Source of the DNA: Atractiella rhizophila | Lineage: Eukaryota | Assembly (NCBI GenBank): GCA_021432655.1 | Contig: MU271299.1 | Location: 65,545-102,810, forward strand | DNA length: 37,266 nucleotides | Direction: 5' to 3' | Shown here: positions 7,501 to 34,376 of the stretch, piece after piece | Position numbering within the stretch: position 1 is the first letter of the stretch | How the letters are laid out: the number at the start of each line of letters is the position of its first letter | Notes under the pieces: model-generated | Databases searched by the model: none | Seen by the model: the letters and a program-made list of their open reading frames with translations, nothing else | What the model was told of the DNA's origin: nothing | Made by a program: the position numbers and the translations under genes

Positions 7501-7731
7501 GTTCGCCTTCCTCGAGGGATGGACGGGTAAGTCGTCAGCTACGAAGGTGGGTATGATCGAATGTTCCTTCTCCAAGTCGAGCTTCTGTGCTCCGTTAACG
7601 TTCGAGTTCAAGTTGACGCCGTTTGAGATGTTTGATATGGGCTTTGGGAGGGCTGATTTGAGGGCGGAGATCGCTCCGTTGATGGATGTGCCGTTCGAAG
7701 AGGAGGGAGAATCGATGGCGACTGGGGACAT
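4592..7731 (-). CDS. Type I Baeyer-Villiger / flavin-binding monooxygenase (multi-exon)
   Basis: First Rossmann motif YVGGGASG, GTWFENKYP|GCACDIPSHTYQF, BVMO fingerprint FKGKLTHTAAWD (FxGxxxHTAxWD), second Rossmann motif LIGVGSSAVQ, CRRLTP, DVIICATGFD. Modelled C-terminus ...RDI|TWYWKTGERLKLFDY* ends at 4592. Confidence 0.92.
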
Positions 7732-8142
7732 GGTCTTCTATTCTACTCTACCGTAGTGGCTGACAATGGCTGATGTAAGTATAAGGTAGATGTAGATGGT
7801 GAAGGGACGGATGGAGGGAGTGCGACATCTTAAATGTCCTGCCATACGAAACGCCTGCCACGGCACAACAAAACACCGATAATATAGCCGATAATCCAAA
7901 TCGAAAGCGACAGCAAAACACCGTGGACGAACTAAAACGCCGGAGGCGTGCTTTCCACTCGGCGTTCTCCGGCACGTCAGCCGGCACTCGCGCCTCACCA
8001 CTACAGCTAAAAGAAGCATCAACCATCAACACTCCGATCCATCTCCATCCACCATTCGCCATCCGACGACCACCAGGCGCCAATAACACCTAACAACAAC
8101 AGCGATAGAAGAGATATTCGCGACGCGTGACGTATCGATCAC
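7732..8142. promoter_or_regulatory. Bidirectional promoter (BVMO / acyl-CoA ligase) with four AACRCCG motifs
   Basis: Divergent ATGs at 7731 and 8143. AACACCG at 7872 and 7917, AACGCCG at 7936, CGGCGTT at 7960. Confidence 0.7.
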
Positions 8143-11099
8143 ATGACCTCCATTAATCGAACCAAGCGAGTTACTCCTCCCCTCTTCTGGTCACCGGGAG
8201 GTCCACGTCCTCACGAAGGGGAGGAGCCGCACATCGAGAAGTTTAGGAAATGGGTCAACGCTCGACGTTCTTACGGCCTCAAATCCTATTGGGATCTCCA
8301 TCGATGGAGCGTTTCCGTACGTCTCAATCTTCATCACAAGTGTGGGGGATTGACTTGATATCTTTGGTGAGAGCAGAAGACCGATGAGTTCTGGAGCGAC
8401 TGTTGGGACTACTTTGGCTTCGTAGGCTCAAAAGGAAACGGGGTGCGTCACTCTCTTCCTTTCGCATCACAACTCTTTCTTACATATTACATATATTCCA
8501 CGATTACAGTCAGCACACGACAGGTCGATACCAATGAACAAACCACAACGCTGGTTCCCCGGCGCATCCTTCAAGTGCGCCATCTTCCTCGTTTTCTCTC
8601 CTCCTTCGTCATGAGAACTGACATTATTCCTTTTGCAGCTTCTCAGAAAACCTCCTCCTCTCCCATCCCAACGCACGCTCCCCAACAGCCACAGCCGTGA
8701 TCGGAACCGTCGAGCCCGACCCATCCTCTTCATCTCCGCAAGAGCCTGTAGAGACAGGGCGTTTGAGTTGGGCTGAGCTGTATGACGAAGTGGGCCGTCC
8801 ATCCATTACATATCTGAAAGCAAAGACATGTTGTTGACGTTGAATTATTGATAGGTGGGAAGAGCGGTTGTAGCGCTCAGGAAGTTGGGTGTTAAGCCTG
8901 GAGACTCAGTCGTCACCTTTGGAGCGTCGAACGTGGAGATGGTCGTCGTCTATCTCGCCGTGATAGCTGTAGGAGCGATCTTCAGTTCCACACCCGCCGG
9001 TGCGTATATTACCCCTTCTCTTCCCTCCTCGGCAACTGACATTCCGACTTATGGATGGATGCTGCAGAATTCGGATCCCACGCAGTCATCGACAGATACT
9101 CCATCATCAAGCCAAAGGTCCTCTTCACCATCGACAAGTACAGGTACGGACGAAAGGAGCATCTCGTATCGCAACGCGCTAGGGAGGTCGTCGACGCTCT
9201 TGTCAAAATGGGAGGGATCGAGCATGTCATCGTCATCGGACACCTCGTCCCTTCTCGCGAACCTGTGCCGGATAGTTTGAAAGGATTCAAAGGGGTAAAG
9301 GTACGCTTTCTCTTGATCGTATCTTTAAGATGAAACTGACTTTTTTCTCTTTTTCAATTCTGATGCATAGACTCAGACTTGGAATTCCTTCTTAAAATCA
9401 GGAAATGGCGCACCGAAGAATATCGAATTCCATAGGGCTGATTTCAGCTGGCCAATATGGATCGTCTTCTCTTCTGGTTCGTCGCCCCCTACTATTTCAT
9501 TTTACGCCTTTACGGCAAGAGGATGTGCTGACTCGATGGCTCGATTGGCTGGTTAGGGACGACTGGAAAGCCCAAGTCGATCTTAGGACCTGGTGGGGGA
9601 CTACTCTTGAGCAGGAAGATGACGAATATGCTCCACATGAATCTAGACCATCGAGACACCGTGCTCCAATTCTCCACCGTGCGCTCTCTTACCTTCTCCA
9701 TTTCAACGAGATCGCAATGCTCACAGCGATTCACAGATGGGTTGGATCGTCTATAACCTCTCCGTCAACTTTTTGGCCACAGGAGGGACCATGTTGTGCT
9801 ATGACGGCTCGCCATTCCATCCCCAAGAGGTTCTCTGGAGGCTGGTCGAGAAATACAAGTCCGTTTCCTCTAACTTTGCAGGATGAATTCTGACTATCGG
9901 CGATAGGGTAGCGCAACTTGGAATCTCCCCTCGGTACATCCAATCGCTGGCTCGAAATCGTTTCGTCCCCTCCGCAGAACGCGACATCTCCTCCCTGAAA
10001 CAAGTTTATACCACCGGGGCTCCAATAACGGGAGACGTCTACGATTACATCGCTCGAGAGGCTCGTCTTCCTCCTTAACCCATCCCAAGTACGATATAGC
10101 CGCTAATTTTCGAAAACTTAGGTACCCAATGCGTTCTTGTCCAATAACTGTGGCGGCACGGAGATCGGAGGAGGCCTGCTCCATTCCGTTCATACCCTTC
10201 CCGTCTATCGAGGGGAGTTACAAGTGCCGATTTTGGGGATCGATCTAGCGGCTTTCGATGATAATGGTACAGTGTGTTTTTGCATTCTATAGCTCGATAT
10301 TGATCAAACCATTTATTCATTACAGGCAAACCGGTATACGATCAGGAAGGCACCATGGTCATTCGCACCGCCTTCCCAAATATGCCAGTAGGCTTCGTCG
10401 GTTTGTCCTTTCTCTCCCGCTGTCTCTGGATTCTTAAGTAGGGAATGCGGGGACAGGAGATGAAGGCGGCAAACGATATCAAGAGACCTATTTCTCCGAC
10501 TTCCCTTCCCCCGTGTTCAACATGAACGACAACGTCTACATGAACTCTGTCACCGGCGGCACTCTCGTCCTTGGACGGTCAGACGGAGTGCTCAATCCAT
10601 CCGGCGTGCGGTTCGGGAGCGCCGAGTCTGTCTCCTCTTCCCTCTGGCAATTTCACTCATCAATGGTACAGGCTTTATTACATCCTCGAGAAGGACTTCC
10701 GCGACGAGATCGTTGACTCGATAGCCGTAGGCCAAAAGACAGCAGATAACAACGAACGCGTCGCTCTCTTCGTCGTTCTACCTGAGCACAAGCGGTTGGA
10801 CAAAGATTTGGTGGGGATGGTGCAAGAGGCGATTCAGCAGCAGCTCAGCAGACGGCATGTACCAGAAATCATCGAGCAATGCCCTGCGATTCCGAGTACC
10901 ATGTCGAATAAGAAACTGGAGAGCACGGTCAAAAAACTGATGTAAGCCCTACTTCTTCATCTCTTTGTGGACACTAAGGCGGATGGACAGAAACGGAGTC
11001 CCGTTGAAAAATATCAACACGTCTGGAGTCGCCAATCCGGAATCCTTTGCCTTCTTCGATCAGTGGTACAAGAAGCAGACAAGGCCTGCAAAGCTCTGA
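8143..11099 (+). CDS. Acetoacetyl-CoA synthetase-family AMP-dependent acyl-CoA ligase (divergent), C-terminal PTS1-like AKL
   Basis: SYWDLHRWSV, RWFPGA, GAIFSSTP, AMP-binding IVFSSG|TTGKPKSI, YDGSPF, GGTEI, GRSDGVLNPSGVRFGSAE, LSRRHVP, SNKKLE, ANPES. Last exon ends ...KKQTRPAKL* (TGA 11097-11099). Confidence 0.9.
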
Positions 11100-11280
11100 T
11101 ATCCGAATCTGTTTCGATCCCTTTATTGTTTAGATATAGCATTTGCATTACGATTACTGTTGCATTACAACCTGCATGCGAACGAGAACAAGCACTCAAA
11201 CGGTAGTTACATAACGAGATGGATAATGCGTCAAAGCGCTGGAAAGGTGAAGTCGGCAAAAGACAAGAGTAGAGCAATGC

Positions 11281-14200
11281 TCATTGAAAAGTGAAGAAAG
11301 GGTCCCACTGAAAGTGAGCACTAAGCATTCCACATGAAGCAAGAGAAAAAGGGGACTCACCGTGACACTCTGGACCAGTCCAAAGTTGCCAAAAATGTCA
11401 TTCTGGACGAACTGATCGATCTGCTCTCCACCAGTCAAAGGCATCCAGTTCGAATCGCTCATCGAAACGAGCAGATCGTCCATCGAGAGCTCAGGCATTG
11501 GCATATCCTGCTGCCCACGGTGCTGTTGCTCGTCCAGTGCACCGTTTGCACTGCCACTGATAGTTTGCGATTGGTCTTGTTCCGGCAATGGGTCAAGGTA
11601 TAAATTGGTCTGGTTGTTAGGGCTCGTCGCCCGCGTCGAGCAAGATTCTTTAAGTAAGGCATTCAGACGGTCAGCGTAGATCTTGGACCGTCCGAAACGG
11701 TGAGAAGGGTAGACACCGAAGCTTTCAAGGAGTGTTACGACTCGTCGTAGGAGGTGGTAAATGTTGGGTTCGATGGGTTGACTTGATTCTTTCCATAGCA
11801 ATAGCTGAGATCAGAGCATACATCAATAACATGTCCAATTTCAAGGGTGATAAAATACCTTGAGAGCGAACGTAGCAGCGTATCCGATCATCATACAGGT
11901 ATTATTGACGAGATACCTGAGTTCTTCTCCTGCTTCTACGAATGCTTGACAGGTTTGCAACGCTGCTATGAGACATTCATGCAACATCGTGGACTCAGAC
12001 GGATGCCCGAGGTGGTCCTTGAGGACGACAATGAGGATGGAGAGCTGAGTATGACAGCCGACAAGATTGAGGTAGGAAACTTGTGAGCCAGATGATGAGT
12101 TCTGCTCCTCATTCTAGAGAAGAAAAGGAGAGCGTACAGGTCCGCGATTTAGGCAACCAATCGTTCCTCCACATGGTCCTGAACACCGATGATATAAGGA
12201 GATGTCCAGGCAGTCAAGTGATGGAGACGCACATAAAATCCGCCGTGATAGCCTTCACCACTGCGGGACTGCTCTTGGGTTTAACCTGCATCTGTTGGGC
12301 CGTCGGAAATGCTGTATTCTCTGGAGCATTCGATACTTGTCTCAGGATATGTGGCTACATAGACCGTCGGTTCGAGGGCTCAGAAATCGAAGAAACCGAG
12401 CAGGAAGGAAATGGCACACCAGTTTACGACGAATCACCACTAGAGCGGCGACGGTCCAATCCTCTGGAACAGCAGAAGGATCGTTAGCCCACTGTTCCAC
12501 TGATTGTACAAGGTCGTTTTCTGGTATGGAGAAGATCCAAGGGTGTCCATGTAAGAGAGCTAGTCTGTCGTTGGAGAGTCAGCACACAGGGTAACATGGA
12601 GGAAGCGAGGTAGGTACCCGCGATCGAAACAGAATAAAGTGAGATAAGTCCTCTCATAAGACCTGACATGTAATTTTCCCTCGTGTGGAAGGTCGGTCTG
12701 AAGGGTCGGACGACGAATTTGGTGAAATTTGTAGTTTGCAAAGTTGAGGTAGGTCGAGGTTTGGTCAAGGGAGAAGTGGGGACTTGCATCCTTCGTTCAT
12801 TACGTTCAACGGATGAATGGAAGAGTAACGGAGATGGAGGAAGGGAGAGGCGCACCAGCCAGGGACAAATAATGCAAAGCGCCTGAACTAATTCTAACGA
12901 GCTCCCTCCTTCAACGAGCACGTGTCCAAGCATGGTCTTCAAATGCTGATCTAGGCGTTGAGAGGTGGCTTGATACCCCTCAAGGAACCTGCACATGGTG
13001 ACGCCGTCAATTTCAACAGCGAATGAGATACGCGACTCACTTGGAAGCTGAAGCGAGTATGGAAACAAATAGAAATGTGCTCCTTTCCCTCACCTCTTGT
13101 CTTCCTTGAATCCTCTCGTCCACTAATGCGACCATGGGCTGAAGGTTTTTATTGAACCTAATACCAACGGCGCGGAATAGATCAGCAGATTCAAGTAGGG
13201 GAGAGGTCAACGAACATCTCAAACATCTCCTGGGCTTCTTTCTCCGTACAAATGCCGACCACGATGGGATCGAAGTCTTCACAATAAGCTAGTGTGGAAG
13301 GGATGGAGAGCATGTCACCGAAATAACTGGAGTGGTGGACCTCAGCATTCATCTTCGTCCTATTCATCGGCCGGTAGGTGGTAGACACCACCCTCCCACT
13401 CGAGGTCCCCAACCGGGGAATTTCTGACGGCTTCCGCTCCGCCAACATCTCCAAAGGCGTGTGCGTGAACTTGGTGCTCGCTGGCGGTTCTTGGGCAACC
13501 GCTGAGGGAAGATCGATTTGGGGTTGTGCCCTGAGAGTGGGGGGAGGATGAGGGGGTGGCGGGTGAGAATGAGGATGAGGCTGTGGGTGGTGGGCATGAG
13601 CATGAGCAGTGTAGGTGGTCGAAGGTGGCATTCCCCCAAGAAGGAGGAGGTTGGATACGCCGTCCGAGTGGGAATGGGAATGGGAGTGTTGGAGAGGCGG
13701 TGGGGGAGGAGGAGCGGCGTGCTGAGGCGGATACGTCGGCGGATGGTGTTGAATTTGGTTATGAGGAGAATGTTGGTCTCCTGGTGCCATTGGGAACACA
13801 TTTTTGGGTTGACCATAGGTTGGAGTGGTGAGTTGGACCACTGGGATATCAGAGGCGGAGCTGGTTGAGGTCGATGGGAGGTTGATGAGCTGATTGACTG
13901 GTGTCACAGCCGCCGAGGACCCAGAATGATGATGTTCGTGAGGGGAGTGTCCGATTGGCCCGTTAGGGAACTGAGACACATGGTGAGGGTGCTGGTGAGG
14001 GTGCTGCTGCTGGCTGAAAGATAGTGCCGCCTTCCCTCCATCTAGCAGCGCCTGCAAGCCCTCGCCTCCGCTAGGACCTCCATTAGCACTCCCTCCACCT
14101 GCTTTCAAAGCGTCCTCCAGAACCTCTATCGCCTTCGTCAGCTTCTTGGTTTTGTGGTACCTATCCAAATGCAAAATCAGAGTCTCATTCTGGGGTTTGC

Positions 14201-14490
14201 TGGCAAGACATAACCACCAAATGAGAGAAAAAAGACTCACTCGACCGGTTCAGTCCTCCTACGTCCAGACTGGCGAGCTCGGGTCTCACAGACGACGTTG
14301 GCTGCCTCACATCGTTTGCAGGTCTCGTTCTCGTTATTTCGCACACATTTCATCTTGCCTGTCCAAGAACTGAGCGTGAGCAGCTAGACTGACGACCAGA
14401 AAGAAACAAACTGGTGCGACAATACATGCACGCAGTGGCGATAGTGCTCGACTTCTCCCTCCTCTTCCTTGTGGCCTTCTCCTCACTCCC
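11281..14490 (-). pseudogene. Zn2Cys6 transcription factor, downstream partial copy: lacks promoter and first 16 codons, retains native C-terminus
   Basis: Near-identical to 14491-17574. Begins at GSEEKATRK at the duplication junction. Modelled end ...QNDIFGNFGLVQSVT|WDPFFTFQ* at 11281. Confidence 0.7.
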
Positions 14491-17400
14491 ACGAACTGAT
14501 CGATCTGCTCTCCACCAGTCAAAGGCATCCAGTTCGAATCGCTCATCGAAACGAGCAGATCGTCCATCGAGAGCTCAGGCATTGGCATATCCTGCTGCCC
14601 ACGGTGCTGTTGCTCGTCCAGTGCACCGTTTGCACTGCCACTGATGGTGTGGGAATGGTCTTGTTCCGGCAATGGGTCAAGGTATAAATTGGCCTGGTTG
14701 TTAGGGCTCGTCGCCCGCGTCGAGCAGGATTCTTTAAGTAAGGCATTCAGACGGTCAGCGTAGATCTTGGACCGTCCGAAACGGTGAGAAGGGTAGACAC
14801 CGAAACTTTCAAGGAGTGTTACCACTCGTCGTAGGAGGTGGTAAATGTTGGGTTCGATGGGTTGACTTGATTCTTTCCATAGCAATAGCTGAAATCAGAG
14901 CATACATCAATAACACGTCCAATTTCAAGGGTGATAAAATACCTTGAGAGCGAACGTAGCAGCGTATCCGATCATCATACAGGTATTATTGACGAGATAC
15001 CTGAGTTCTTCTCCTGCTTCTACGAATGCTTGACAGGTTTGCAACGCTGCTATGAGACATTCATGCAACATCGTGGACTCAGACGGATGCCCGAGGTGGT
15101 CCTTGAGGACGACAATGAGGATGGAGAGCTGAGTATGACAGCCGACAAGATTGAGGTAGGAAACTTGTGAGCCAGATGATGAGTTCTGCTCCTCATTCTA
15201 GAGAAGAAAAGGAGAGCGTACAGGTCCGCGATTTAGGCAACCAATCGTTCCTCCACATGGTCCTGAACACCGATGATATAAGGAGATGTCCAGGCAGTCA
15301 AGTGATGGAGACGCACATAAAATCCGCCGTGATAGCCTTCACCACTGCGGGACTGCTCTTGGGTTTAACCTGCATCTGTTGGGCAGTCGGAAATGCTGTA
15401 TTCTCTGGAGCATTCGATACTTGTCTCAGGATATGTGGCTACATAGACCGTCGGTTCGAGGGCTCAGAAATCGAAGAAACCGAGCAGGAAGGAAATGGCA
15501 CACCAGTTTACGACGAATCACCACTAGAGCGGCGACGGTCCAATCCTCTGGAACAGCAGAAGGATCGTTAGCCCACTGTTCCACTGATTGTACAAGGTCG
15601 TTTTCTGGTATGGAGAAGATCCAAGGGTGTCCATGTAAGAGAGCTAGTCTGTCGTTGGAGAGTCAGCACACAGGGTAACATGGAGGAAGCGAGGTAGGTA
15701 CCCGCGATCGAAACAGAATAAAGTGAGATAAGTCCTCTCATAAGACCTGACATGTAATTTTCCCTCGTGTGGAAGGTCGGTCTGAAGGGTCGGACGACGA
15801 ATTTGGTGAAATTTGTAGTTTGCAAAGTTGAGGTAGGTCGAGGTTTGGTCAAGGGAGAAGTGGGGACTTGCATCCTTCGTTCATTACGTTCAACGGATGA
15901 ATGGAAGAGTAACGGAGATGGAGGAAGGGAGAGGCGCACCAGCCAGGGACAAATAATGCAAAGCGCCTGAACTAATTCTAACGAGCTCCCTCCTTCAACG
16001 AGCACGTGTCCAAGCATGGTCTTCAAATGCTGATCTAGGCGTTGAGAGGTGGCTTGATACCCCTCAAGGAACCTGCACATGGTGACGCCGTCAATTTCAA
16101 CAGCGAATGAGATACGCGACTCACTTGGAAGCTGAAGCGAGTATGGAAACAAATAGAAATGTGCTCCTTTCCCTCACCTCTTGTCTTCCTTGAATCCTCT
16201 CGTCCACTAATGCGACCATGGGCTGAAGGTTTTTATTGAACCTAATACCAACGGCGCGGAATAGATCAGCAGATTCAAGTAGGGGAGAGGTCAACGAACA
16301 TCTCAAACATCTCCTGGGCTTCTTTCTCCGTACAAATGCCGACCACGATGGGATCGAAGTCTTCACAATAAGCTAGTGTGGAAGGGATGGAGAGCATGTC
16401 ACCGAAATAACTGGCGTGGTGGACCTCAGCATTCATCTTCGTCCTATTCATCGGCCGGTAGGTGGTAGACACCACCCTCCCACTCGAGGTCCCCAACCGG
16501 GGAATTTCTGACGGCTTCCGCTCCGCCAACATCTCCAAAGGCGTGTGCGTGAACTTGGTGCTCGCTGGCGGTTCTTGGGCAACCGCTGAGGGAAGATCGA
16601 TTTGGGGTTGTGCCCTGAGAGTGGGGGGAGGATGAGGGGGTGGCGGGTGAGAATGAGGATGAGGCTGTGGGTGGTGGGCATGAGCATGAGCAGTGTAGGT
16701 GGTCGAAGGTGGCATTCCCCCAAGAAGGAGGAGGTTGGATACGCCGTCCGAGTGGGAATGGGAATGGGAGTGTTGGAGAGGCGGTGGGGGAGGAGGAGCG
16801 GCGTGCTGAGGCGGATACGTCGGCGGATGGTGTTGAATTTGGTTATGAGGAGAATGTTGGTCTCCTGGTGCCATTGGGAACACATTTTTGGGTTGACCAT
16901 AGGTTGGAGTGGTGAGTTGGACCACTGGGATATCAGAGGCGGAGCTGGTTGAGGTCGATGGGAGGTTGATGAGCTGATTGACTGGTGTCACAGCCGCCGA
17001 GGACCCAGAATGATGATGTTCGTGAGGGGAGTGTCCGATTGGCCCGTTAGGGAACTGGGACACATGGTGAGGGTGCTGGTGAGGGTGCTGCTGCTGGCTG
17101 AAAGATAGTGCCGCCTTCCCTCCATCTATCAGCGCCTGCAAGCCCTCGCCTCCGCTAGGACCTCCATTAGCACTCCCTCCACCTGCTTTCAAAGCGTCCT
17201 CTAGAACCTCTATCGCCTTCGTCAGCTTCTTGGTTTTGTGGTACCTATCCAAATGCAAAATCAGAGTCTCATTCTGGGGTTTGCTGGCAAGACATAACCA
17301 CCAAATGAGAGAAAAAAGACTCACTCGACCGGTTCAGTCCTCCTACGTCCAGACTGGCGAGCTCGGGTCTCACAGACGACGTTGGCTGCCTCACATCGTT

Positions 17401-17574
17401 TGCAGGTCTCGTTCTCGTTATTTCGCACACATTTCATCTTGCCTGTCCAAGAACTGAGCGTGAGCAGCTAGACTGACGACCAGAAAGAAACAAACTGGTG
17501 CGACAATACATGCACGCAGTGGCGATAGTGCTCGACTTCTCCCTCCTCTTCCTTGTGGCCTTCTCCTCACTCCC
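11407..17574. repeat. Head-to-tail tandem duplication, 2 x 3084 bp (11407-14490 and 14491-17574)
   Basis: ORFs recur at a constant 3084 offset (11847/14931, 13191/16275). Junction CTCACTCCC|ACGAACTGAT at 14490/14491. About 15-20 substitutions seen by eye and no net indel. Confidence 0.97.
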
Positions 17575-17622
17575 TAGCCCTCCCGCATTGAGGGAATCAT
17601 TGTTATGTGGATGCTGCATCAT
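14491..17622 (-). CDS. Fungal Zn2Cys6 (GAL4-type) transcription factor, upstream copy, C-terminus cut by the duplication junction
   Basis: ATG at 17622. Spliced N-terminus gives CMYC-RTSKMK-C-VRNNENET-C-KR-C-EAANVV-C (Cx2Cx6Cx8Cx2Cx6C), then a His/Pro/Gln-rich region and a fungal TF middle region (DPIVVGICTEKEAQEMFEM..FNKNLQPMVALVD, SSLELVQAL). Confidence 0.88.
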
Positions 17623-18063
17623 CCTCCGAGTTCTGTCCTAGGCTCCTGGAAAATTATATTATCTGTCTAAATTAACAATATTTTGTACTTTTACGCGGCT
17701 GCAGGGCGCCTATGTTGGGGAAGTGAGGAGGAGCTTGATGACTGTATTGCTAAATTACCATATTCCCACCGTGAGTCAATTTGTGGGACCGGAGCCAAGG
17801 TAGGCGGTGCTACCTTCCAGTGGCAACAGCTATGATTTTGATGTTATCTTATCGACATTACTGAAATATTGCGACAACTTGCACTTTGCGACTGGCAGGA
17901 CAAGAATTTTGATGCTGCGAATCAATGCATTCGATAACTAATCAGGCACACGTGCAAAATCTACTGGTACATTCCTTCATCCATCATAGCATGCGTATCC
18001 GATCCAAAATACGATCAATTCATAAGGTATCAAAGGAGACAGCCTGTCTCAAGGGGACAGCGC

Positions 18064-20772
18064 CTAATAGACGTAACGGAACTGTTCCAAACCCAACCAC
18101 ATCAGCGTCACCACCTCACACGATTTAAAAGAGTGAGAGAGCTCACATTAGGGTTCTGCACATCCGTCAAGTCCGCAAAAGCAGTCTCATTCTTCTCCGG
18201 ACCGACTCCTCCTCCCACCTTCGCCTTGGCCTCCCTCCTTCGATTCTCGTACCAATACCAAACACCGAGGAGGACGCAGGCGACGAACTCGATGAGAATC
18301 GAGATCAACATCGACCTCAGGCCGAGGTTGAAAACTGGCGCCTCCTCCGTCTTGTAGAAGAACGGCCCAGCCAGATTACCCGTCGCCATACCCACGAAGG
18401 TGACGGCCGAGGTGAGAATCTTTTTGGTGTGACCTGCCGTGTTTGACACGATAAGAGACAAGACCTGCAATTGATCATCGTCAATCTTTCGTTGGGTATA
18501 TAGAACGGCTGGGGAGCGCACCATGATGTAAGTCAGGTTGAAGGGAGCGGTGAGGTAGTAGCAGATCAGACGAGGGACCTTCTGATCAGGATCGGTGAGC
18601 ATAAGGCCTTCATCCGACATATGTCGTTGGTGTCAACGGAGGAGGAGAGAAGTAAGACACCAACCGAGAGCTCCAGCGATATTGGGAAGGCACGAAAAAG
18701 CAGCAATGAACGCCCGCTTATTCTTGCAACTGTCGTCACCATTTCATGTCTCTTCCATAACGCAGGAAAGGGAGAGATGCGCACTGGTGGTTGATAAACA
18801 CCCCTCCGAGCACCCAGAAGAATGCAAAGAAACCATATGGCACTTGCAGCACCGTTGTCGTGAGAGTCGAGAATCCGAAACCTGTGTCCATTCCATCACA
18901 AGTATAAACATGAAGCTATACAAACGGGAAGAAGAAAAGTGAAGAGTGAAAGGGAGCCAGACGAACCCTTGATGATTTGAGTACCAAAGTTTGAGATCCC
19001 TCCATTGATCAAATTGGAGCTGATGCCGACGGCGAAGTAAAGGAGGGTAGGCACGGAAGTGAAGGTCTCCTTGACCTGGTCCCACTTGAAATGTTTATCT
19101 TCCAGACCCGTCTGGTTCTCCTGAATCCTGGCCTACACGCGATCCGATGAATACGCAAGATCTCTTTGATGAGGAAGAGAGATAATGGATTGGGGGACGC
19201 ACGATTTGCATCATCCGCTCCTTCTTAGTAAACAGGTGCGTGTTCGCAGGGCTGTCGGGGAGAACCCAGAACATTGTGACTCCCCAAATAAAACAGAGGG
19301 CACCAATGATCAGGAATTCGTATTTCCAACTAGGGATCGAAGACTGTCATCGACACCACCAATATATCAGTATATGAAACGTGAGTGGATGAAGAATGGA
19401 AAGAATGAACAGGGGAGACAAACATCAGGAATAGATCCGATGCCGTATCCCAACAACCCTCCCAGAGCGATTCCGATCCCAATAGCGGAGAACCAGATGC
19501 CCATCCTCAAGGGTTGTTCTTTACGTGTGTACCACATTCCGGTGATGATCATGAATGCCTTCCCATCGCAACAATCCAAATCAGTCGACGAGGTCAAAGG
19601 AAGCAAAAAAGAATGAGGAAGAATCACAGGATCCGCTGTCCCCTCCGCCATCCCGCTCAAGAACCTCAGAGCGCCCAACTCGCCAAAACTCTTGCAAGCG
19701 GCTTGACACATGAGGAGTACTCCCCAAATCGTGATCCTAACCACGCATTACACGTATGTTAGCCTCCTCTTTGTTCGGAGAGAAAGCTGACGCACGAAAA
19801 GGCAAGATATTTTCCCACTGGTAGACGCTGGATCAAAAGATTGGTAGGAACAGCCCAAGTCTAGGTGCACAATCAGCCCTAGAATTGTACCAGTGAAGGA
19901 AAACGAACGAGCCATCCAAAGTAGAAGAGGGAGGAGAGCCAAGAGTACTCCGTGCCAACGAGGTGCAGATCGTCCTTGAGACCAAATACAGCGGCGTATT
20001 GGAGCGTGGTTTTATCGATGTACTGTCGCATTGCAATGTCAGACGGACCAGAGGGGAGGGAGAGGGAAACGTACGTAGAAGGCATTGCAAATGATGATGC
20101 ACACCAAAATGATCTTGTCCACCTTTGTGATCAACGCCCTCTTCTCTTCCGCCGGGATCGCGGACTCGTCTGGGTAGGTGGCTAATGCCTGTGCAATGGT
20201 GGCGCATTAGCTTATGACAGTGTGTTGAAGTAAAAGGAAAGGAGATCGGCAATGTAGAAATTGGAGGTCGGTTAGAAATGTATCAGAAGGAGGCGATATT
20301 GCAAAGTATGAGAGAGCATAACAATACAGAAGAAAGACGAGATGGAAAAGGGAAAGGTTGGAAGAAGGGAATGAAAATGAGAAACGCGGGAGGAAGAAAG
20401 AAAAAGATAGAGAGTAGGCATATTGAACAAAGATAGAAAGACGGAGAAAAGAGAAGAAGGAAGGATAGAGCAAAGATAGGGCTAAAGATAAAGATATTCT
20501 AAGATAGAAAGATGGCTCACCTGCGCTATCTCTTTAGTATTATCTGGTTTGTAGACCAATCGCTTCCAAAGCGACCTCTTCTCTGCGCCATAGTCTGAAG
20601 AACCAGCATCCCAATCTTGGCCTCCCTTGGGAAGAGCAGGATGATGGGTTGGCGACGACTCTATCATCTCCACATCCTCCTTCCTCTTCTCAAGGGAAGA
20701 AGGGGCTGGCGATGGAGAGGAGTGCTCCTTTTCCTTGATATCTCTCTCATCGTAAGACATTGGCTGGGACAT
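18064..20772 (-). CDS. MFS transporter, allantoate permease (DAL5)/anion:cation symporter family
   Basis: QYIDKTTLQYAAVFGLKDDLHL..EYSWLSSLFYFGWL, LRFLSGMAEG, WYTRKEQPLRMGIWF, SNTAGHTKK, ENRRRE, AFADLTDVQNPN|FRYVY* (TAG 18064-18066). Confidence 0.93.
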
Positions 20773-21226
20773 TGCTGCTTGACTACCTCGATATTCGTTC
20801 GTGGCTGACCAACTGAGTTTGAATTATGCGCTGCGCTAGTTAAGTGTTGAGTTGTTGAGTTGTGTGGATGGGGACAGAAGTTAACAGTGACGCCGCGAAT
20901 GAACCAGCTGTAAGCGTGAGCGTTAGTGGATTCGAAACGCGGGGTAACGCCCGAGTGAAGGATATGCGGTTTTTAAACTCTTCCTCGCTCGATACGCCCC
21001 TTTCCAACTAAAACACCGGGGTTCCATCACTGTACGGCGTTCTGCGTTGATGAGGAAACAAATGTGTCGGCGTTTTTCATCATAAACTATTTTTTGCTGA
21101 GCAGAGTCATTTCGGAGATTTGAAGGAGAATTTGAAAAAGGGAAGAACGCCGTCGGCGTTTACTCTTAATTCTATTACGGGATATCACATGATCTACTGA
21201 AATCCACCAGCAACAACCAACTTACA
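20773..21226. promoter_or_regulatory. Bidirectional promoter (MFS / thiolase copy 1) with five AACRCCG motifs
   Basis: AACACCG at 21012, CGGCGTT at 21035 and 21068, palindrome AACGCCG-T-CGGCGTT at 21146-21160. Confidence 0.7.
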
Positions 21227-22727
21227 ATGGCATTGCAGGATATCCTCACCCGCTCGCCAGACGATATCGTCATTCGTCAGTCCTTTATTCCTGTCTCTTC
21301 ATTGCATCTTCTCTTCCGTCACCTTGGTGGACATTATGAGAAGTACTGAGCAAGCTTCAACAGTATCCGCCAAACGCACGCCGCTCTGTCGAGCAAAAAT
21401 GGGCGGTCTAAAGGATAGCAAATTTGAGGACCTGCTCTCTACCAGTCTACGAGCGGTACTACATGAAGGAGGAGTGCCAGCTGACAAGGTGGAAGAGGTA
21501 TGCATCGGCACTGGTCCGTCTTCCTCTTTCCCTTCTCTTGACAACATACAGTATACGCTGATTACCCCTGGACTTTGTGATCTTGAAGTCAGGACACCGA
21601 GAGGAGGAGCCTCCATTTCCCGCATGGCCGCCATCCATGCTGGCATCACCACAAAATCCACCGTCAGCACCGTCAATCGTCAGTGCTCTTCTGGCCTTCA
21701 GGCTGTGTGGAACGTCGCCCTCAGTATCAAGAACGGGGACATTGATATTGGCATCGGAGGAGGGGCGGAGTGCATGACCATGCATTATAATACAAAGGTG
21801 GTGGAACATGAAGTCAGTTTTTCACTTTCCTCCCTATATCTTTTCTCCCCATATGTTTCATTTCTTTGCTGCTATTGTCACATTGAGCCTCTTTTCTTTC
21901 CTTTCATTGTGTCGCATCAAATTGATCACAATTTCCGCCTCGGTCAACAGGTCTCGGAAGATGTGATGAGCACTAAAGCAGCAGCAGACTGCTTGATACC
22001 TATGGGAATAACAAACGAAAACGTAGCGACACTGTGCGTCCTCCTTTTCGAGCATACACACGAACAGAAAACTCTAACCCAAATACCGACAGGTATTCGA
22101 TCCCCCGCTCTTCTCAAGATGCCTTCGCAGCCTCCTCCTATTCTAAAGCCGAAAAGGCCCAAAAAACCGGCTTCTTCGCCGAAGAGATTGCTCCGGTCCT
22201 GGTACGGAGTAAGAAGAAGGGAGAGGACGGAAAAGTGGTGCGAGTGGAGAGCAAGGTGGAGGCGGACGACGGTATTCGATACGGTGTCACAGCCGAGGTG
22301 GGTGACGTACTCTACCCTTTCTCCCTTTCTCGGTTTCGGTCTGCAAAGATGAGGATGCGTACTGATTGGGTGGGTGGTGCATATACAGAGTCTGAGCACG
22401 ATCAAGCCCGCATTCAAAAAGGACGGGAGCACGCACGCGGGTAACGCCTCTCAACTGACAGATGGCGCGGCCGCTGTCCTCCTCGCGCGGAGGTCTGTGG
22501 CGGAAGCGATGGGGCTAGGGGATCGCATTAAAGGCAAGGTGGTTAGGGTCACAGGTGTCGGTGTACCTCCACATGTGAGCGCGTACCCTTCTCTTCCTGT
22601 CAGCTTGTTTGATGTTGGTATGCTGGTAGATCATGGGCGTGGGACCGGCTTTTGCGATCCCCAAGTTGTTGGAAAAAGAAGGACTTGGTATAGGAGACGT
22701 CGATTTCTTCGAAGTTCATCTCCTCCC

Positions 22728-22733
<6 letters not shown>
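21227..22733 (+). pseudogene. 3'-truncated copy of the 3-ketoacyl-CoA thiolase
   Basis: TVNRQCSSGLQA, MGITNENVA, HAGNASQLTDGAAAV and IMGVGP are present. The sequence breaks in the intron after ...DVDFFE at the poly-A, so the NEAF, GHPLG and final catalytic Cys exons are missing. Confidence 0.8.

Positions 22734-22779
<46 letters not shown>
22732..22779 (+). repeat. Homopolymer A48 at the duplication junction
   Basis: 48 consecutive A; the matching position in copy 2 reads CCTTTAAGTG (~25118-25127). Confidence 0.95.
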
Positions 22780-22781
<2 letters not shown>

Positions 22782-22909
22782 TGGATGACAGAAAAGATAG
22801 AGAGTAGACATTGAACAAAGATAGAGAGAGGAGAAAAGAGAAGGGAGGAAGGATAAAGCACAGATAAACCTAAAAGATAAAGATTATCTAAGATAGAAAG
22901 ATGGCTCAC

Positions 22910-23161
22910 CTGCGCAATCTCCTTAGTATTATCTGGTTTGTAGACCAATCGCTTCCAAAGCGACCTCTTCTCTGCGCCATACTCGGAAGAACCAGCATCC
23001 CAATCTTGGCCTCCCTTGGGAAGAGCAGGATGATGGGTTGGCGACGACTCTATCATCTCCACATCCTCCTTCCTCTTCTCAAGGGAAGAAGGGGCTGGCG
23101 ATGGAGAAGAGTGCTCCTTTTCCTTGATATCTCTCTCATCGTAAGACATTGGCTGGGACAT
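22910..23161 (-). pseudogene. Orphan duplicate of MFS exon 1
   Basis: MSQPMSYDERDIKE...KEIAQ, near-identical to 20521-20772, followed by an intron donor that runs into the A/T tract. Confidence 0.8.
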
Positions 23162-23615
23162 TGCTGCTTGACTACCTCGATATTCGTTCGTGGCTGACCA
23201 ACTGAGTTTGAATTATGCGCTGCGCTAGTTAAGTGTTGAGTTGTTGAGTTGTGTGGATGGGGACAGAAGTTAACAGTGACGCCGCGAATGAACCAGCTGT
23301 AAGCGTGAGCGTTAGTGGATTCGAAACGCGGGGTAACGCCCGAGTGAAGGATATGCGGTTTTTAAACTCTTCCTCGCTCGATACGCCCCTTTCCAACTAA
23401 AACACCGGGGTTCCATTACTGTACGGCGTTCTGCGTTGATGAGGAAACAAATGTGTCGGAGTTTTTCATCATAAACTATTTTTTGCTGAGCAGAGTCATT
23501 TCGGAGATTTGAAGGAGAATTTGAAAAAGGGTAGAACGCCGTCGGTGTTTACTCTTAACTATATTACGGGATATCACATGATCTACTGAAATCCACCAGC
23601 AACAACCAACTTACA
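23162..23615. promoter_or_regulatory. Duplicate bidirectional promoter upstream of the intact thiolase
   Basis: Motifs at 23401 and 23424, and 23535-23549 (AACGCCG-T-CGGTGTT). The site at 23457 has changed to CGGAGTT. Confidence 0.65.
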
Positions 23616-25485
<1,870 letters not shown>

Positions 25486-25682
25486 AGATGAAATCAAATA
25501 GCTATGTTGCGCATGGTGCAATCCACACGTAAAGGGAATAAAAATACTCTTTCCTGACCCAGTGTCGATATGCATGATATTCACTTACGAAGCAATGGAT
25601 ATGCGCGGCAAAATTCACTTGCACTTGAAGTACATTGCAAGCTTGTATCTTTAAATCGGCACAGCATTGAGGACTTCGCTTC

Positions 25683-27236
25683 TTAGAAAATTGCTACTAC
25701 ATTCGCTGTAGATTGAAGAAACAAGCAGATTTGTTAACGTCACAGGGAAAGAGGAGCGAGGGGAACGTACGAGTTGACCCGACGCCTCCAGGGACATTGA
25801 GTGGAGCGGAGGAAAGGAAGAAAGTCCACCTTTTATGTTCTTCGCAGAGTTTAGACAGTCTGTTCAGCAAAAAATGCCGATTTAGTCAAAATAGTGAGAA
25901 CGAAGAGGAGGCATACTTTTCGAGATTCCACATCTCTCCAATGCTTCCATTTCCATCAAGTAGCACGTTAGAACCAGAGAATAAAGGTGGAGTGATCTAA
26001 CTTACGGCATACCTGTTCCAGATGGAGGAATAAGTACATATAGTAAAAGAAGAGAGAAGAACACGAACCCCAGAGAGCCAAGAAATATTCGTGCACTTTG
26101 TCAATTTCTGATTAGGCAGCTCTTCGACAGACATGAAATGGGTAGGCTCACGAGATGGGGACACCTTCGGCGGCCAGGCTTCAAAAGCGACAGTATCTCC
26201 TCCCACAGCCGCGAAATGATTATTCCTACGCCCCATCCCTGTTAACTCTCATAGCACGAAAGAGAGGCAAGACACACCAAAACCACTCCACGCTCTCCTC
26301 TGTACACTCCACTCCGATAAAAACTGCGTTCTCAAATGTCCCTTTCTTTCTCTCCTCCTCTCCGGCCTCCTCGTGCCACTTCACGAACCCCGTCCTGATG
26401 AGCAGAATGTCTCCGACTTTGAATTCCACTCCCTGTTCGCGAGCTACAGCTTGGAGCTCAGAAAGAGGGATTTCGTGTCGTGAGACAGGCGAAGGGACAG
26501 AGGTCGAGGATCGACGCATCTTCCACGACAACCAATCAAGCAATACGCCACGACCGACAATGCCACCGGCGGAGCAGAAGTTTGAAATACTGTTCTTGAG
26601 GCCGTGGGAACCACTAATGATCTCGTCATGACTGTCCAGACCAAACCTTTCAGCTCCCACCGAAAACATGATTGGAATGAGCACAAACGTTAGTCCGTTG
26701 TAGTATTTCCCAGATTGCCGATGCGCATAGTGCAGGAATCCGTCCCACTGAGAGCCACATTGAGTGTTGAAACTGACCTATTTACACTCGTTACCCGCGC
26801 ACAATCTAATCTAAGAGGAGAATATACCTACCTCATCGTCACACCCAATATGTCCACTTGTGGGATTGCTTTTGTCAATAATCTTCTGCTTGAAAGGAGC
26901 TCTACAACCAATCAAACTTAATGAATGCTTCGTTCACGGCTTAAAATGGTAAACGGACCGCCGAAAGCCAGGAAACTGGACGTTATTCAGCGACCAATCT
27001 AGCTGCACTCTCACCCCAGTCCTGATCTCCTCCTTCGCCGCATCCTGTACTCTTTCTGGAGTTAACAGATTCAGTGCTGTGTTACCACATCATTAATTGA
27101 CAGACAAATTTACAGATAAAAGGTGCCTACTTCCCAACTCGTCTCTCGTGCTCTTGTCTTTGCTAAACAACCCCCATGCACAGCCGTGAGGCATACCCTC
27201 GACATAGGGGAGATCCTTGAAATCGCAGATCTCCAT
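25683..27236 (-). CDS. Fungal cyclase-family (kynurenine formamidase-like) metal-dependent hydrolase
   Basis: MEICDFKDLP..GCAWGLF..DELG|TLNLLTPERV..EIRTGVRVQLDW, SQWDG, GGIVGRGVLLD, GDILLIRTG, FAAVGGDTVAFEAWP, PLNVPGGVGST|PNVVAIF* (TAA 25683-25685). Confidence 0.9.
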
Positions 27237-27682
27237 CGCTTGCTTTCTTTCTTCAGCTACGATTGATTTATTGCAAACAAGCTCCTTTGTGAAGAGCCGG
27301 TGTTTTACTTGACTCTCCGCTCCGGTTCGGAGCCGATTTGGCAGAAAAAAGGAAGGTCCCGCTCCCAGTCATCTCTTTTCTATAGAATATTTATTATTTA
27401 TAGCAGACTAATAATTATGGGAATCGTGGAGCCTCGTGTTCAACCCATCTTGCGAATGACCAAGTGTTTTTTCAGACTCAAGATACCCATTGATTATGGA
27501 TTGGCTGAGCAATGAGTATGAGAATGAATATGGTCTTGAGACAATATGGAAAACTGGAGTGCCTATAGATTCTCAATTTTTGATGCCGCACCTTTTCCAA
27601 GGTCTTGAGCCAAAATCGCCAAATGCTACAATTCGATGATTTACAACATGACAAAATATAGGCTACATCGATTGAGAGTCGT

Positions 27683-28752
27683 TTAAATGCCTCTTCCTCC
27701 GTCGACAGATACAATGATCCCCGTCACAAAATCGCTCTCCTTGCAGGCGAGATGGGCAACCATGTTAGCGATATCTTCAGGCTGAGCAATTCTTTGGATT
27801 GGAATAGTCTGCGCGAGGCGTTTTCGAGCCTCAGGGTCGTCCTTTCCTCCAGTCAGGCTATTGGTCCTGTTCATTATAGTTAATCTTGCCGGTAAGGTGA
27901 AGATTGAGATGACTGTGCGTACATTTGTGTGTTGGCGATGACTGGAGCAACGCCGTTGAAGCGAATTTGATGTGGAGCATATTCTATAGCTAATGACTTT
28001 GTCGCTCCCTCTGCTGCGGCTTTTGATGCCCTAATCCAAAATTCCATTTCTGTGTGTCTTTTGGGAGAGACACTTACGTGTAGTAAGCGAGCCCTGGCCG
28101 TGGACGCGAAGCACTCATGCTTCAGGTCATAGTCGTTAGTTATTGTGCGTGCCGAAGGATGAGGGAAGTTGCGTACCTCGTGATGTTGACAAAGTTCGCT
28201 TTGATGCCTTCTTTGATGAAATGAGGAACGAGTAGCTGGGCCGACACGAAAATCGGCTTCAAGTTAACCTTGAGAAGGCGATCGAGTGTGTCAAATCCCA
28301 TCTCGTGTGTTGGCTGCAGCCCAGATTAATATATCCATCAACTTTCAAAGGAAGCGAAAGACGCACAGTAGCGTTCATCACAATGCCTGCATTATTCACG
28401 ACTATGGTGAGCTTCCCCCATTTCTCATTTGCAGTTTTCAACGCCTCTTCCCACGGTTTTGGATCCGAAACGTCTCCCTGAATGATCTAATTTGCGCCAT
28501 TTAACTGATATTCACTGAAGGGGAAGAGGGGAAGAGACTTACAGCTACATCCTCGCGCTTGTCGTCCTTCAAAGGCTCAATGTTCCAGTCAATGATTATC
28601 ACCTTCGCTCCCTCGTTCAAAAACTTGGTGACAATTCCAGCTCCCAAGCCTATCCACGCCTTCAGTTGCTTGAATTTAGATAGTGATTGAGAGAACAACT
28701 AACCGATGGCACCCCCTGTCACGATTGCGACTTCCCCTTCGAGCTTTCCCAT
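27683..28752 (-). CDS. Classical short-chain dehydrogenase/reductase (3-oxoacyl reductase-like)
   Basis: MGKLEGEVAIVTGGA..GLGAGI, VVNNAG, RPRPGLAYY..ASK (YxxxK), IRFNGVAP, PEDIANMVAHL..FVTG..VDGGRGI*. Confidence 0.92.
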
Positions 28753-29031
28753 TCTGATTGATCCGTAATGTAAGCTCAGGATACCTTTTGAACTCCTTTC
28801 TTTCCCCCCTTTTCCTTTTTCCTTTTACAATTTGCTGCTATAGGAAAACCGGCGTGAAAACGCCGGCCGGTGTTGCCGCAGGGTTTTGCCTTTGCCGCCA
28901 TCAGCCAGACAGCAGAGGTGGGGTAGGAAGATATAGCAACGATGTTACAGGAGTCTAAAATGGCATGCTAAACTCTGAGTTACTGCTACCTTCAACTGCT
29001 GGAATCCCTTCCCGTTCTGTCTCCGGCAAGC
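28753..29031. promoter_or_regulatory. Bidirectional promoter (SDR / hydrolase) with palindromic motif pair
   Basis: AACGCCG-GC-CGGTGTT at 28859-28874, preceded by AAAACCGGCGTG. Confidence 0.65.
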
Positions 29032-30273
29032 ATGAAGTTCGTACTTGCTTACAAGCACGTTAAATCTACCCCTCTTCTCATGGATGTACACCCATCCGAT
29101 GTCTATGTGGAGGGGGGAAACCCACTTGCATTTTATTTCCACAGTGGCGGCCTCGTGAGTCTCCCCGTTTGCGTCGAATAACAAGCCTTGATGCCGAAAC
29201 GACAGACGGGAGGAAGGAGAGATGGCTTCTTCCCACAGTGGTTGGCAGATTTCGCTAACCAAAGAGGCGTACATGTCGCCAGTGCCGACTACAGACTCAT
29301 ACCTAGCTGCACGGTCGCGGACATCATTGAGGACGTGAAGGACATTTATGAGTTTGTCAGAAGCGAGGATGGGTTGCAAAGGGAATTGGAGAAGAGAGGA
29401 CTGGGGAGGGTGGATAAGAACAAGCTCCTCGTGTGAGTTTTCCTTCCCTCGCAGTGGGACAGCCCTAAGTTTTCTACTGCTCAAGAACGGGAGGAAGTGC
29501 AGGTGAGCTGTGCTCCTTCCACTCGTCCGATTGGACTCTGATCAATGTTATGAAGGTGTCTACTGCGCTCTCCAGTTGACTCTCCATCTTCTTTCTTCAG
29601 CTTCCAAACATCCACCTCCTCTGGGATTCCTCAATCTGTACGGTGAGCTTGACATAGGCGCGCGGCAGCACAACCATCCTCCTTTCTCCCTCCCAGAGGA
29701 GTATCGCTACCTTTGGGATAACAACCGGGCTCCAGTGACGGGGACAGATGTGAAGTGGTTCTACACTCCGGTTGAAGAGTGTTCCAATGCGGTCGAGAGA
29801 GAGGAGGCAGACCAAACCACTTTGTGCGTCCTGCCATCCTATTCTTCGCTTAGTGTCTGATAGGCAGAAACAGGACGTCAAAGCTTTTCGCGGCAGGTAT
29901 TTTAGCAGACGCGTTCACATCTTCGGACAGCCTGTCCCGCGCGCTTGCAGAGCAGAAAGACGATTCTCTTGAAACTCAAGCGGCAACGATCCCCTCAGAG
30001 CTTCATTGCTTTTTCCCACTTCTCCAGATCCCCAGTTCCTTTCCTCCAACCCTCATCTTTCATGGGGAACAAGATGCGGCAATCCAAATATCTGAATCCG
30101 AGCGTTTTGCAGAGAAGTTGAAACAGGTCGGGGTTCCGGAAGAGAAGATCAAGTTCGTCAGAATTCAAGGCGAGGGCAGCGGCCATGGATTTGATAGAGG
30201 GGATGGTTTTGAAAAGTATTGGGAGAGCGTGATGAAAGAGAAGATGGAGTGGTTGTTTGAATTCGTAAATTGA
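29032..30273 (+). CDS. Alpha/beta hydrolase (HSL-like esterase/lipase family)
   Basis: MKFVLAYK..FYFHSGGL (HGGG-like oxyanion motif), ADYRLIP, nucleophile GGSAG, FLIFHGEQD, GHGFD. Ends ...WLFEFVN* at 30273. Confidence 0.88.
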
Positions 30274-30627
30274 ATGTTGTGAGTACTTCCTCGTCGCGCT
30301 TAATACTGCTTGGAGAGGCTAAGTTGATTCTGGGTCAGAAACAAACTCATATTTATCCTCACTGTAGTCGGGTTAGCTGACGCAATAACGAAGGCCCTGT
30401 CATTATCCTGTAAAATGACTGACAATCACATTACACAACCATACCCGCAATCCAAATGTTCGAAGTACATCGACTTTCCCAATCTCATACCTTCTTGACT
30501 GCCTGGCAGGCTTTGCCCTATTCTCTCGAGCCTCTTAATGAGAGGACTGCGTTTCCTTGACAATGCGTTGAGCTCATACTAGCACATTCTTAAAGCTTGA
30601 ACCTTTTACCACCTCAAGGTTCCGTGG

Positions 30628-30928
30628 ATGTCCTCCATCAATGCCCTCCAGGCCTCCAGTCAATCCAGTTCTCCAGCGGCGACCGAAGATGTAGTGTACG
30701 TACAAAATGCCGAGATATACAAATGGCTTGATGATTTCTTCACCAAACTCTTGGTAAGTGAATTATCAAGCAGAAACATGGCTAACGGTAGCGTAGATTC
30801 ATAAAGATCAATGGACCAGAGAAGAGGCTGGCATCGTTTTCAAAGTGAGGTCAACGAAGCCTCCGTCAAAGGTTACGTATTCAAATTTATCTCTTGAAAT
30901 AACTCTGCAAGTCACACTTTGTACGTGA
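30628..30928 (+). other. Possible small spliced orphan ORF or gene remnant
   Basis: Canonical GTAAGT..GCTAAC..TAG intron (30754-30796) joins two open frames in phase (..WLDDFFTKLL|IHKDQWTREEAG..). No recognisable family. Confidence 0.25.
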
Positions 30929-31394
30929 CTTTCTTTACGGGCTCCTCAAAATGCTCAATGATTGCATGTTGATAGCAGGCCGTCATAGGAGTCCTTCAGA
31001 ATTGTTGTATTGACCAAAGGACGCTAGCGTGCGCTAATTGCAGAACTCAATGTTAAGCCCAGACTCAAACATTGAAGCTCTTGAACACATAATGCACTGC
31101 CACCTAATCCCAAACGACTATTTTTCTTACCCAGATTTCATCGCGCCACTTTCCACAACGATACGCAGTCGGCCACAACAATGGACGCAGCCGCCGTCCG
31201 CTCGCATCTCGTCTCCTTGTAAATGACCCGGATCGTCGGGCGCGATCAAGTTCCCTTTCCCTTTGTTCTCAAATCGTCTCACTTGTCCAACCTTGCCTCT
31301 TGTACGGGGTTCCGAATCCCCTGGTCACATCGTATATATACCCCTTGTCTTTCTGGTTGTTTTGTGGTTACGATCCGAGTGGAGGGAAGTGAGG

Positions 31395-33153: not shown

Positions 33154-33337
33154 GTGTCGAAAAGATGCAGGAAGGGATGGACATCCAATCAATCGTTCGA
33201 TCGGACTAGCAATCAGTTGAATGAGTAAAAGCTGCAGCAGTCATGGTTTGTAGAAGGCACGTATCACTTTCAAGCGCAGATATGTAATCGTAATATACAT
33301 GCACCACAAGTTTGAAGTTTTCTGGAAATATGAGCCA

Positions 33338-34269: not shown

Positions 34270-34376
34270 TTCCCTCTTTCGTCTTCGCAGTTTCTTCTCC
34301 TGGAGCGGCGGACCTCCAAAATTCCTTTCTGATACTACCTTTATTAAGCGTTGGAAGGCTCTGTGTGTATGTCTAT

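Follow-up and report, generated by a model that had tools for sequence, protein, structure and literature searches.

A nine-base element, ARAACRCCG, in the promoters of a seven-gene cluster of Atractiella rhizophila, and a candidate Zn2Cys6 reader encoded within the cluster

Introduction

Cluster-specific zinc-cluster (Zn2Cys6) transcription factors with sites in every promoter of their cluster are textbook knowledge in ascomycetes, and the qa and aflatoxin clusters are known cases besides the alc cluster for ethanol utilisation of Aspergillus nidulans and the terrein cluster of Aspergillus terreus. The gene of the alc factor, alcR, is autoregulated via sites in its own promoter. In bacteria, the gene sets for the degradation of cyclohexanol and cyclic ketones are composed of a dehydrogenase, a Baeyer-Villiger monooxygenase (BVMO) and a lactone or ester hydrolase. 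To our knowledge, no transcription-factor site has been defined for the Atractiellomycetes. Here, a stretch of 37,266 bp of contig MU271299.1 of Atractiella rhizophila (the window) was analyzed, in which the element ARAACRCCG is found in the four promoters of seven genes. Database proteins named for this root-associated species match the window with 99-100% identity. These encode a BVMO, an acetoacetate-coenzyme A (CoA)-ligase-like enzyme, a major facilitator superfamily (MFS) transporter, a thiolase, a putative cyclase, a short-chain dehydrogenase/reductase (SDR) and an alpha/beta hydrolase. The element is interpreted as shared by a co-regulated cluster and most likely read by the Zn2Cys6 factor that is encoded in the same cluster, with a probability of roughly 0.55.

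In the excerpted text of PMC6265462, Pho7 and AlcR are described as monomeric Zn2Cys6 factors that recognize one CGG within an extended site, and for AlcR residues within or upstream of the zinc module are given as contacting bases. For TerR, the excerpt of PMC4360782 describes a monomeric DNA-binding domain whose binding is aided by an N-terminal basic stretch. The locus studied here resembles the alc system in being an apparently catabolic cluster with its own Zn2Cys6 gene, which is here the candidate activator. It also has short sites with one CGG that occur singly and as repeats, several per promoter, the repeats of AlcR being direct or inverted in the excerpted source (PMC6265462). The sites themselves differ, that of AlcR being given in the same excerpt as the pentamer (A/T)GCGG, whereas here it is the 9-mer ARAACRCCG. 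The lineages differ as well, AlcR belonging to the Ascomycota and the present factor, whose binding is predicted, to the Pucciniomycotina. Unlike the autoregulated alcR, the factor gene of this cluster has a promoter that is free of sites.

The similarity to Pho7 of Schizosaccharomyces pombe lies in the single CGG with specific bases outside it and in a monomer without coiled coil (PMC6265462, excerpt), a state that for the present factor we infer. In contrast, Pho7 controls unlinked phosphate genes and, in the text available from that source, has a 14-bp footprint of a different sequence. With TerR the locus shares an in-cluster Zn2Cys6 gene and CGG-based sites in bidirectional promoters (PMC4360782, excerpt), and the basic stretch KATRKRREK that precedes the zinc cluster here is like the N-terminal basic stretch of TerR. 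The TerR motif given in that excerpt is, however, a direct CGG repeat, TCGGHHWYHCGGH. The terrein cluster is also biosynthetic, whereas the present one looks catabolic. The combination of SDR, BVMO and hydrolase suggests the logic of the bacterial cyclohexanol and ketone sets, to which a CoA ligase and a thiolase are added here, but the genes are intron-bearing eukaryotic genes, each with its own promoter, and the regulator would be a zinc-cluster factor. This kind of system is well known from the alc and terrein clusters and no new principle is involved; what is new is the word itself, the lineage and the layout of mostly single sites. A search of the full-text literature for the motif word together with Zn2Cys6 or 'binuclear' gave no related report, as judged from titles and the openings of abstracts, and a literature search for BVMO, acetoacetate-CoA ligase and thiolase in fungi found no paper.

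Results

The motif AACRCCG/CGGYGTT was searched on both strands of the whole window, which holds 22 matches, compared with 6.32 +/- 2.80 in 100 dinucleotide-preserving shuffles, none of which reached 22. The sites that an initial annotation, made from the letters of the sequence, had listed are each an exact match, and its claim that the motif stands upstream of all seven enzyme and transporter genes holds, with at least one site 65-385 bp before each ATG. Six matches absent from that annotation (267, 12182, 15266, which is the duplicate of 12182, 18261, 27949 and 37109) are located in a retroelement, in gene bodies or at the end of the window. The non-promoter DNA has five independent matches in about 30 kb, close to the chance rate of about one match per 4 kb that had been assumed.

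For the counts in unique promoters, the second copies of both tandem duplications of the window were excluded, which leaves four promoters, at 7732-8142, 20773-21226, 27237-27680 and 28753-29031 (411+454+444+279 = 1,588 bp). These contain 12 sites, while local dinucleotide shuffles gave 0.35 +/- 0.60 (maximum 3) and none of 2000 reached 12. As a guard against the bias of a motif chosen by eye, 7-mers were ranked in the promoters versus the rest of the window. AACGCCG came first, with 7 copies in the promoters versus 2 in a background of about 30 kb (Poisson p 1.1e-10), and AACACCG came third. When four random regions of the same sizes were drawn 200 times, the best word was weaker in all 200 sets (smallest p 1.9e-8). 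Seven other intergenic stretches hold one 7-mer match in total (37109) and no 9-mer. The promoters on the side of the transcription factor, kinase and HUB1-type genes, which had been judged site-free by eye, are indeed so (17623-18107, 30300-31226 and the divergent region 34411-34924). The motif is, within the 37-kb window, over-represented in the cluster promoters and nearly restricted to them.

Alignment of the 12 sites revealed two further informative positions on the 5' side, with A in 10 of 12 and A or G in 11 of 12. Beyond positions -2 to +6, no conservation was found within 22 bp on either side of the aligned sites. Exact copies of the resulting 9-mer, ARAACRCCG, number 10 in the four promoters and 3 in the duplicated one; the rest of the 37 kb has none on either strand, and the five unique 7-mer matches outside promoters all lack the A-R prefix. 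The element is better described as this 9-mer than as the 7-mer. Common ancestry of the promoters was ruled out as the origin of the shared word: they resemble each other over at most 14 bp, in stretches centred on the motif, and therefore duplicated promoter DNA does not explain it. The proposal of a shared element is thus borne out as a strongly non-random word, containing the CCG/CGG triplet, in the promoters of the seven genes. We consider it very probable that ARAACRCCG is a genuine cis-element common to these genes, within the one window studied.

The number of copies per promoter varies between 1 and 5, in both orientations, and all 12 unique sites terminate in CCG, the triplet of zinc-cluster sites. 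Four of the sites are arranged as two everted pairs, CCG-T-CGG, which is a perfect palindrome of 15 bp (21146-21160), and CCG-GC-CGG (28859-28874), both as first described; two such pairs with gaps of up to 3 bp arise in 0.2% of random placements.

A second shared word was seen in these promoters. TGGCTGA/TCAGCCA occurs in all four (5 copies versus 3 in the background, p 1.4e-6), and GTGGCTGAC precedes the ATGs of the BVMO and MFS genes by 25-37 nt. The 7-mer reaches the 5% level of the random-set null, a borderline significance, and is regarded as unproven.

The gene of the Zn2Cys6 factor is located between the ligase and MFS genes and is, as assembled, internally duplicated (copies A and B, Table 1). 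That the cluster encodes a Zn2Cys6 protein was confirmed by removal of a 53-nt GT..AG intron, a kind of which the window carries many, with lengths of 52-65 nt. Copy B then encodes MMQH...KATRKRREKSSTIATA-CMYCRTSKMKCVRNNENETCKRCEAANVVC, with a canonical CX2CX6CX8CX2CX6C at residues 37-66, whose first cysteines read CMYC and which is preceded by the basic stretch KATRKRREK. The Pfam domain Zn_clus is matched by incomplete pieces with 15.4-16.8 bits, under the cut-off of 21. Fungal_trans (PF04082) is matched with 14.1 bits (E 0.025) versus a cut-off of 23, at residues 386-513 of P0001, the database protein that corresponds to copy A and begins at a Met within the zinc cluster. These sub-threshold matches have the expected order along the factor.

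A word-seeded homologue search among 5.8 billion proteins returned, besides the window's own protein, a single homologue, P0005 (MNV49_002257) of Pseudohyphozyma bogoriensis, which agrees with 96% of the query region at 42% identity. In the zinc cluster the identity of the two proteins is 69%, and STIATAC before the first cysteine and CETRARQSGRR after the sixth are conserved, whereas a helical, coiled-coil-like stretch that follows the zinc cluster, and that might have served for dimerisation, is not kept in P0005. This pattern, together with the single extended sites, points to a factor that resembles the monomer type of zinc-cluster factor. A fold-based homodimer test with two copies of residues 1-95 of P0001 gave a score of 0.02 versus a mark of 0.32, and was used neither way.

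The starts of the seven genes (the upper coordinate in Table 1 for genes on the minus strand and the lower one for those on the plus strand) were set by eye, from translation and homologues. Gene identities were taken from Pfam, NCBIfam and solved-structure matches on single exons, and the approximate 3' ends of the ligase and MFS genes come from a dynamic-programming gene model. The BVMO has the hallmarks of type I enzymes, with FKGKLTHTAAWD as its fingerprint and GGGASG as its GxGxxG motif. Among solved structures it is matched best by BVMOs, with E values as low as 3.6e-11 for a single exon, and the best NCBIfam match is PtlE. The annotated protein P0006 (559 aa) begins at 7357. However, the BVMO homologues of three other Pucciniomycotina species have 35-75 extra N-terminal residues compared with P0006, and the N-terminal extension of four homologues agrees with the reading frame open from the ATG at 7731 (MSPVA...). 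A start at 7731 is therefore likelier than one at 7357, and the database model looks truncated. For the cyclase, a ninth intron was inferred from the loose end of a contig placed in the window.

RNA-type contigs with GT..AG joints, from four runs of related organisms, cover the thiolase, cyclase, SDR and hydrolase genes. Several cluster genes are therefore transcribed; the contigs carry no expression levels or conditions. Among the variants listed for these runs none falls in a promoter site, from which no conservation is concluded. With SDR, BVMO and hydrolase, followed by ligase and thiolase, and an MFS transporter of the organic-anion type, the cluster looks catabolic. A metagenome scan with a thiolase exon gave 3 loci with 49% identity, in which the thiolase stands alone, with no other cluster gene and no synteny.

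To the right of the hydrolase lie a protein kinase gene and then a ubiquitin-like HUB1-type gene. The suggestion that the motif marks the limits of the cluster stands on this right side, where the hydrolase has the motif and the kinase lacks it. It does not extend to the left, where a copia-type retroelement reaches the edge of the window and no statement on the cluster limit can therefore be made. This long terminal repeat (LTR) element, at 3-3303(-) with gag, integrase and reverse-transcriptase matches, adjoins the left end of the cluster. One RNA-type contig spans the 3' end of the kinase gene (+) and the HUB1-type gene (-), at 32721-33675; the two convergent transcripts overlap, or were co-assembled. 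In run X3, a very high contig depth was seen across 32962-34404.

The second tandem duplication of the assembled sequence, at 20484-25179, has a unit of about 2.39 kb, which comprises 289 bp from the 5' end of the MFS gene, the complete divergent promoter and the thiolase gene. The two promoter copies differ at 6 of 454 positions. One of these, CGGCGTT to CGGTGTT, stays within the consensus, as originally noted; another, passed over at that time, turns the CGGCGTT at 21068 into CGGAGTT at 23457, and this site is lost. The thiolase part of the duplication differs at 102 positions plus indels, versus 6 of 454 in the promoter, a contrast that could reflect uneven divergence, gene conversion or decay of copy 2.

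Table 1. Sites of the element, a second promoter word and genes in the window.
Feature	Positions	Strand	Remarks
Site AAAACACCG	7870-7878	+	BVMO/ligase divergent promoter
Site AAAACACCG	7915-7923	+	BVMO/ligase promoter
Site AAAACGCCG	7934-7942	+	BVMO/ligase promoter; one base on, degenerate inverted partner AGGCGTG (5/7)
Site AGAACGCCG	7960-7968	-	BVMO/ligase promoter
Site AAAACACCG	21010-21018	+	MFS/thiolase divergent promoter
Site AGAACGCCG	21035-21043	-	MFS/thiolase promoter
Site AAAACGCCG	21068-21076	-	MFS/thiolase promoter; lost in the duplicated copy
Everted pair AGAACGCCG-T-CGGCGTTTA	21144-21162		67-81 bp upstream of thiolase ATG
Duplicated MFS/thiolase promoter copy	23399-23551		Sites 23399(+), 23424(-), 23533(+), 23543(-); site at 23457 broken
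Single site AAAACACCG	27298-27306	-	65 bp upstream of cyclase ATG
Everted pair AAAACGCCG-GC-CGGTGTTGC	28857-28876		SDR/hydrolase divergent promoter; near-site CGGCGTG just upstream
TGGCTGA-type word	7756-7764, 20801-20809, 27502-27508, 28901-28907		Four promoters
BVMO	4612-7731	-	Fingerprint FxGxxxHxxxWD 6063-6098; GxGxxG 7277-7306
Acetoacetate-CoA-ligase-like AMP-binding enzyme	8143-11099	+	3' end approximate
Zn2Cys6 factor gene	11200-17622	-	ATG 17622; zinc cluster split by intron 17443-17495; 3' end approximate
Factor duplication copies	A 11407-14490, B 14491-17574
Promoter of Zn2Cys6 gene	17623-18107	-	Site-free
MFS transporter, anion:cation symporter type	18108-20772	-	3' end approximate
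Thiolase copy 1	21227-22810	+	3' end approximate
Tandem duplicate: MFS 5' fragment, promoter and thiolase	22873-25179	+	Copy 2 thiolase ATG 23616
PF04199 'putative cyclase'	25650-27236	-	8 introns confirmed by RNA-contig joints; 3' end approximate
SDR	27683-28752	-
Alpha/beta hydrolase	29032-30273	+	BD-FAE, Abhydrolase_3 and Peptidase_S9 matches

Discussion

Binding of the element, the role of the cluster's factor as its reader, monomeric binding, activation and the catabolic role of the genes are what we infer from the DNA, and they can be joined as follows. The four promoters with ARAACRCCG, three of them divergent, would drive the seven genes of the probably catabolic cluster, with the in-cluster Zn2Cys6 factor as the most likely reader of the element. 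For the terminal CCG, the contact would come from the factor's zinc cluster, and the A-rich 5' part may be read either by residues just before the first Cys, where a conserved arm and a basic stretch lie, or by the conserved linker behind the last Cys. The factor would in this respect be closer to the monomeric extended-site type of Pho7, AlcR and TerR than to a dimer of the Gal4 type. The several sites per promoter, including the two everted pairs, would lead to co-induction of the seven genes, and the encoded enzymes may convert an alcohol or ketone to an ester or lactone, and this to acyl-CoA and acetyl-CoA.

A number of observations weigh against the in-cluster factor as the reader, and they are best considered together with the main rival, which is that the shared cis-element is read by a factor encoded elsewhere, for example one that regulates fatty-acid, ketone-body or beta-oxidation genes in general, or one of a different class such as C2H2, while the Zn2Cys6 protein of the cluster would bind something else or be crippled. 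The enrichment statistics do not name the reader, and ligase and thiolase belong to general acyl-CoA metabolism. As assembled, the factor gene is itself disrupted by an internal tandem duplication of 3,084 bp, with copies that are about 98% identical, and the promoter, the ATG and all six Cys are found together in copy B only. The last exon of copy B crosses the junction out of frame (...GGEQIDQFV, then GVRRRPQG...), and copy B would thereby lose the native C-terminal ~23 residues (...QNDIFGNFGLVQSVTWDPFFTFQ, from P0001; ..WDPFFTFQ). The DPFF motif of this tail is found again close to the C-terminus in the orthologue from P. bogoriensis. Copy A keeps the native C-terminal end but lacks a separate start. 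In the promoter of the factor (17623-18107) no site is found, even when one mismatch to the 9-mer is allowed.

The layout of the sites and their evolution count on the same side. Eight of the 12 sites are single, without a partner half-site at any fixed distance, and the two everted pairs have unequal spacers of 1 and 2 bp. The sites thus lack the two triplets at fixed spacing and orientation of the classic homodimer layout, and most of them, being single and extended, are unlike the CGG-Nx-CCG sites of dimers. Two of the 6 substitutions between the promoter copies fall inside the 45 bp that the sites occupy, one of them destroying a site; although the sample is tiny, the sites show no sign of constraint between the copies. 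In P. bogoriensis, different contigs carry MNV49_002257 (259,167 bp) and MNV49_000759 (P0009; 75,659 bp), the latter being the best homologue of the BVMO, and the linkage of factor and BVMO is therefore not conserved there.

Nonetheless, each site ends in CCG, which is typical of zinc-cluster sites, and precisely the motif-bearing genes have a zinc-cluster gene in their midst. Zinc-cluster factors that bind single extended sites as monomers do exist, as the excerpt of PMC6265462 describes, and unlinked targets in another species are compatible with regulation of the cluster here. A reader encoded outside the cluster is, on this balance, unlikely, though it deserves to be taken seriously, and the in-cluster Zn2Cys6 factor is preferred.

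It could also be considered that the element is a core-promoter or structural feature near transcription starts and not the site of a pathway-specific activator. The cyclase site is 10 bp past the end (27288) of a root metatranscriptome contig, nearer to transcribed sequence than is usual for an upstream activating site and thus a further point against the preferred reading, and the everted pair of the thiolase promoter is just 67-81 bp from the ATG. In the remaining promoters, however, distances of 110-385 bp separate the sites from the ATGs, and the sites vary in orientation and in number (1 to 5 copies). The window's three control promoter regions are free of sites, and a transcription start cannot be defined from contigs. 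A core-promoter role is thus improbable.

That the clustering is due to chance, to CpG-rich composition or to the choice of a motif after seeing the data is the least credible of the alternatives and is largely refuted within the window, since, although the motif was defined by eye on these same promoters, the BVMO/ligase and MFS/thiolase promoters are CpG-richer than the control regions and the second promoter copy inflates the raw count, the local shuffles fall far below the observed 12 sites with the duplicate excluded, the unbiased ranking returns the motif as the best word, and this word beats the best one of every random region set.

Conclusions

If the element is real, it defines a compact and easily tested regulon of 12 sites, seven genes and one candidate factor, and could be used to search the whole genome for additional regulon members. 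It would also give a handle on what this root endophyte degrades via the route of BVMO, hydrolase, CoA ligase and thiolase, and would extend by one the small group of zinc-cluster factors that recognize single extended sites instead of paired CGG triplets.

A more far-reaching interpretation, which we regard as doubtful, is that a factor known to date from Pucciniomycotina alone, with an undescribed 9-bp site of the monomer type, controls a seven-gene BVMO pathway from ketone or ester to acetyl-CoA, in which duplication may be rewiring or silencing the regulon. If this were true, the cluster would be a fungal counterpart, in a plant-root endophyte, of the bacterial operons for the degradation of cyclic ketones, and a recent duplication within the factor gene would have separated, in this strain, a complete DNA-binding domain from the conserved C-terminal tail.

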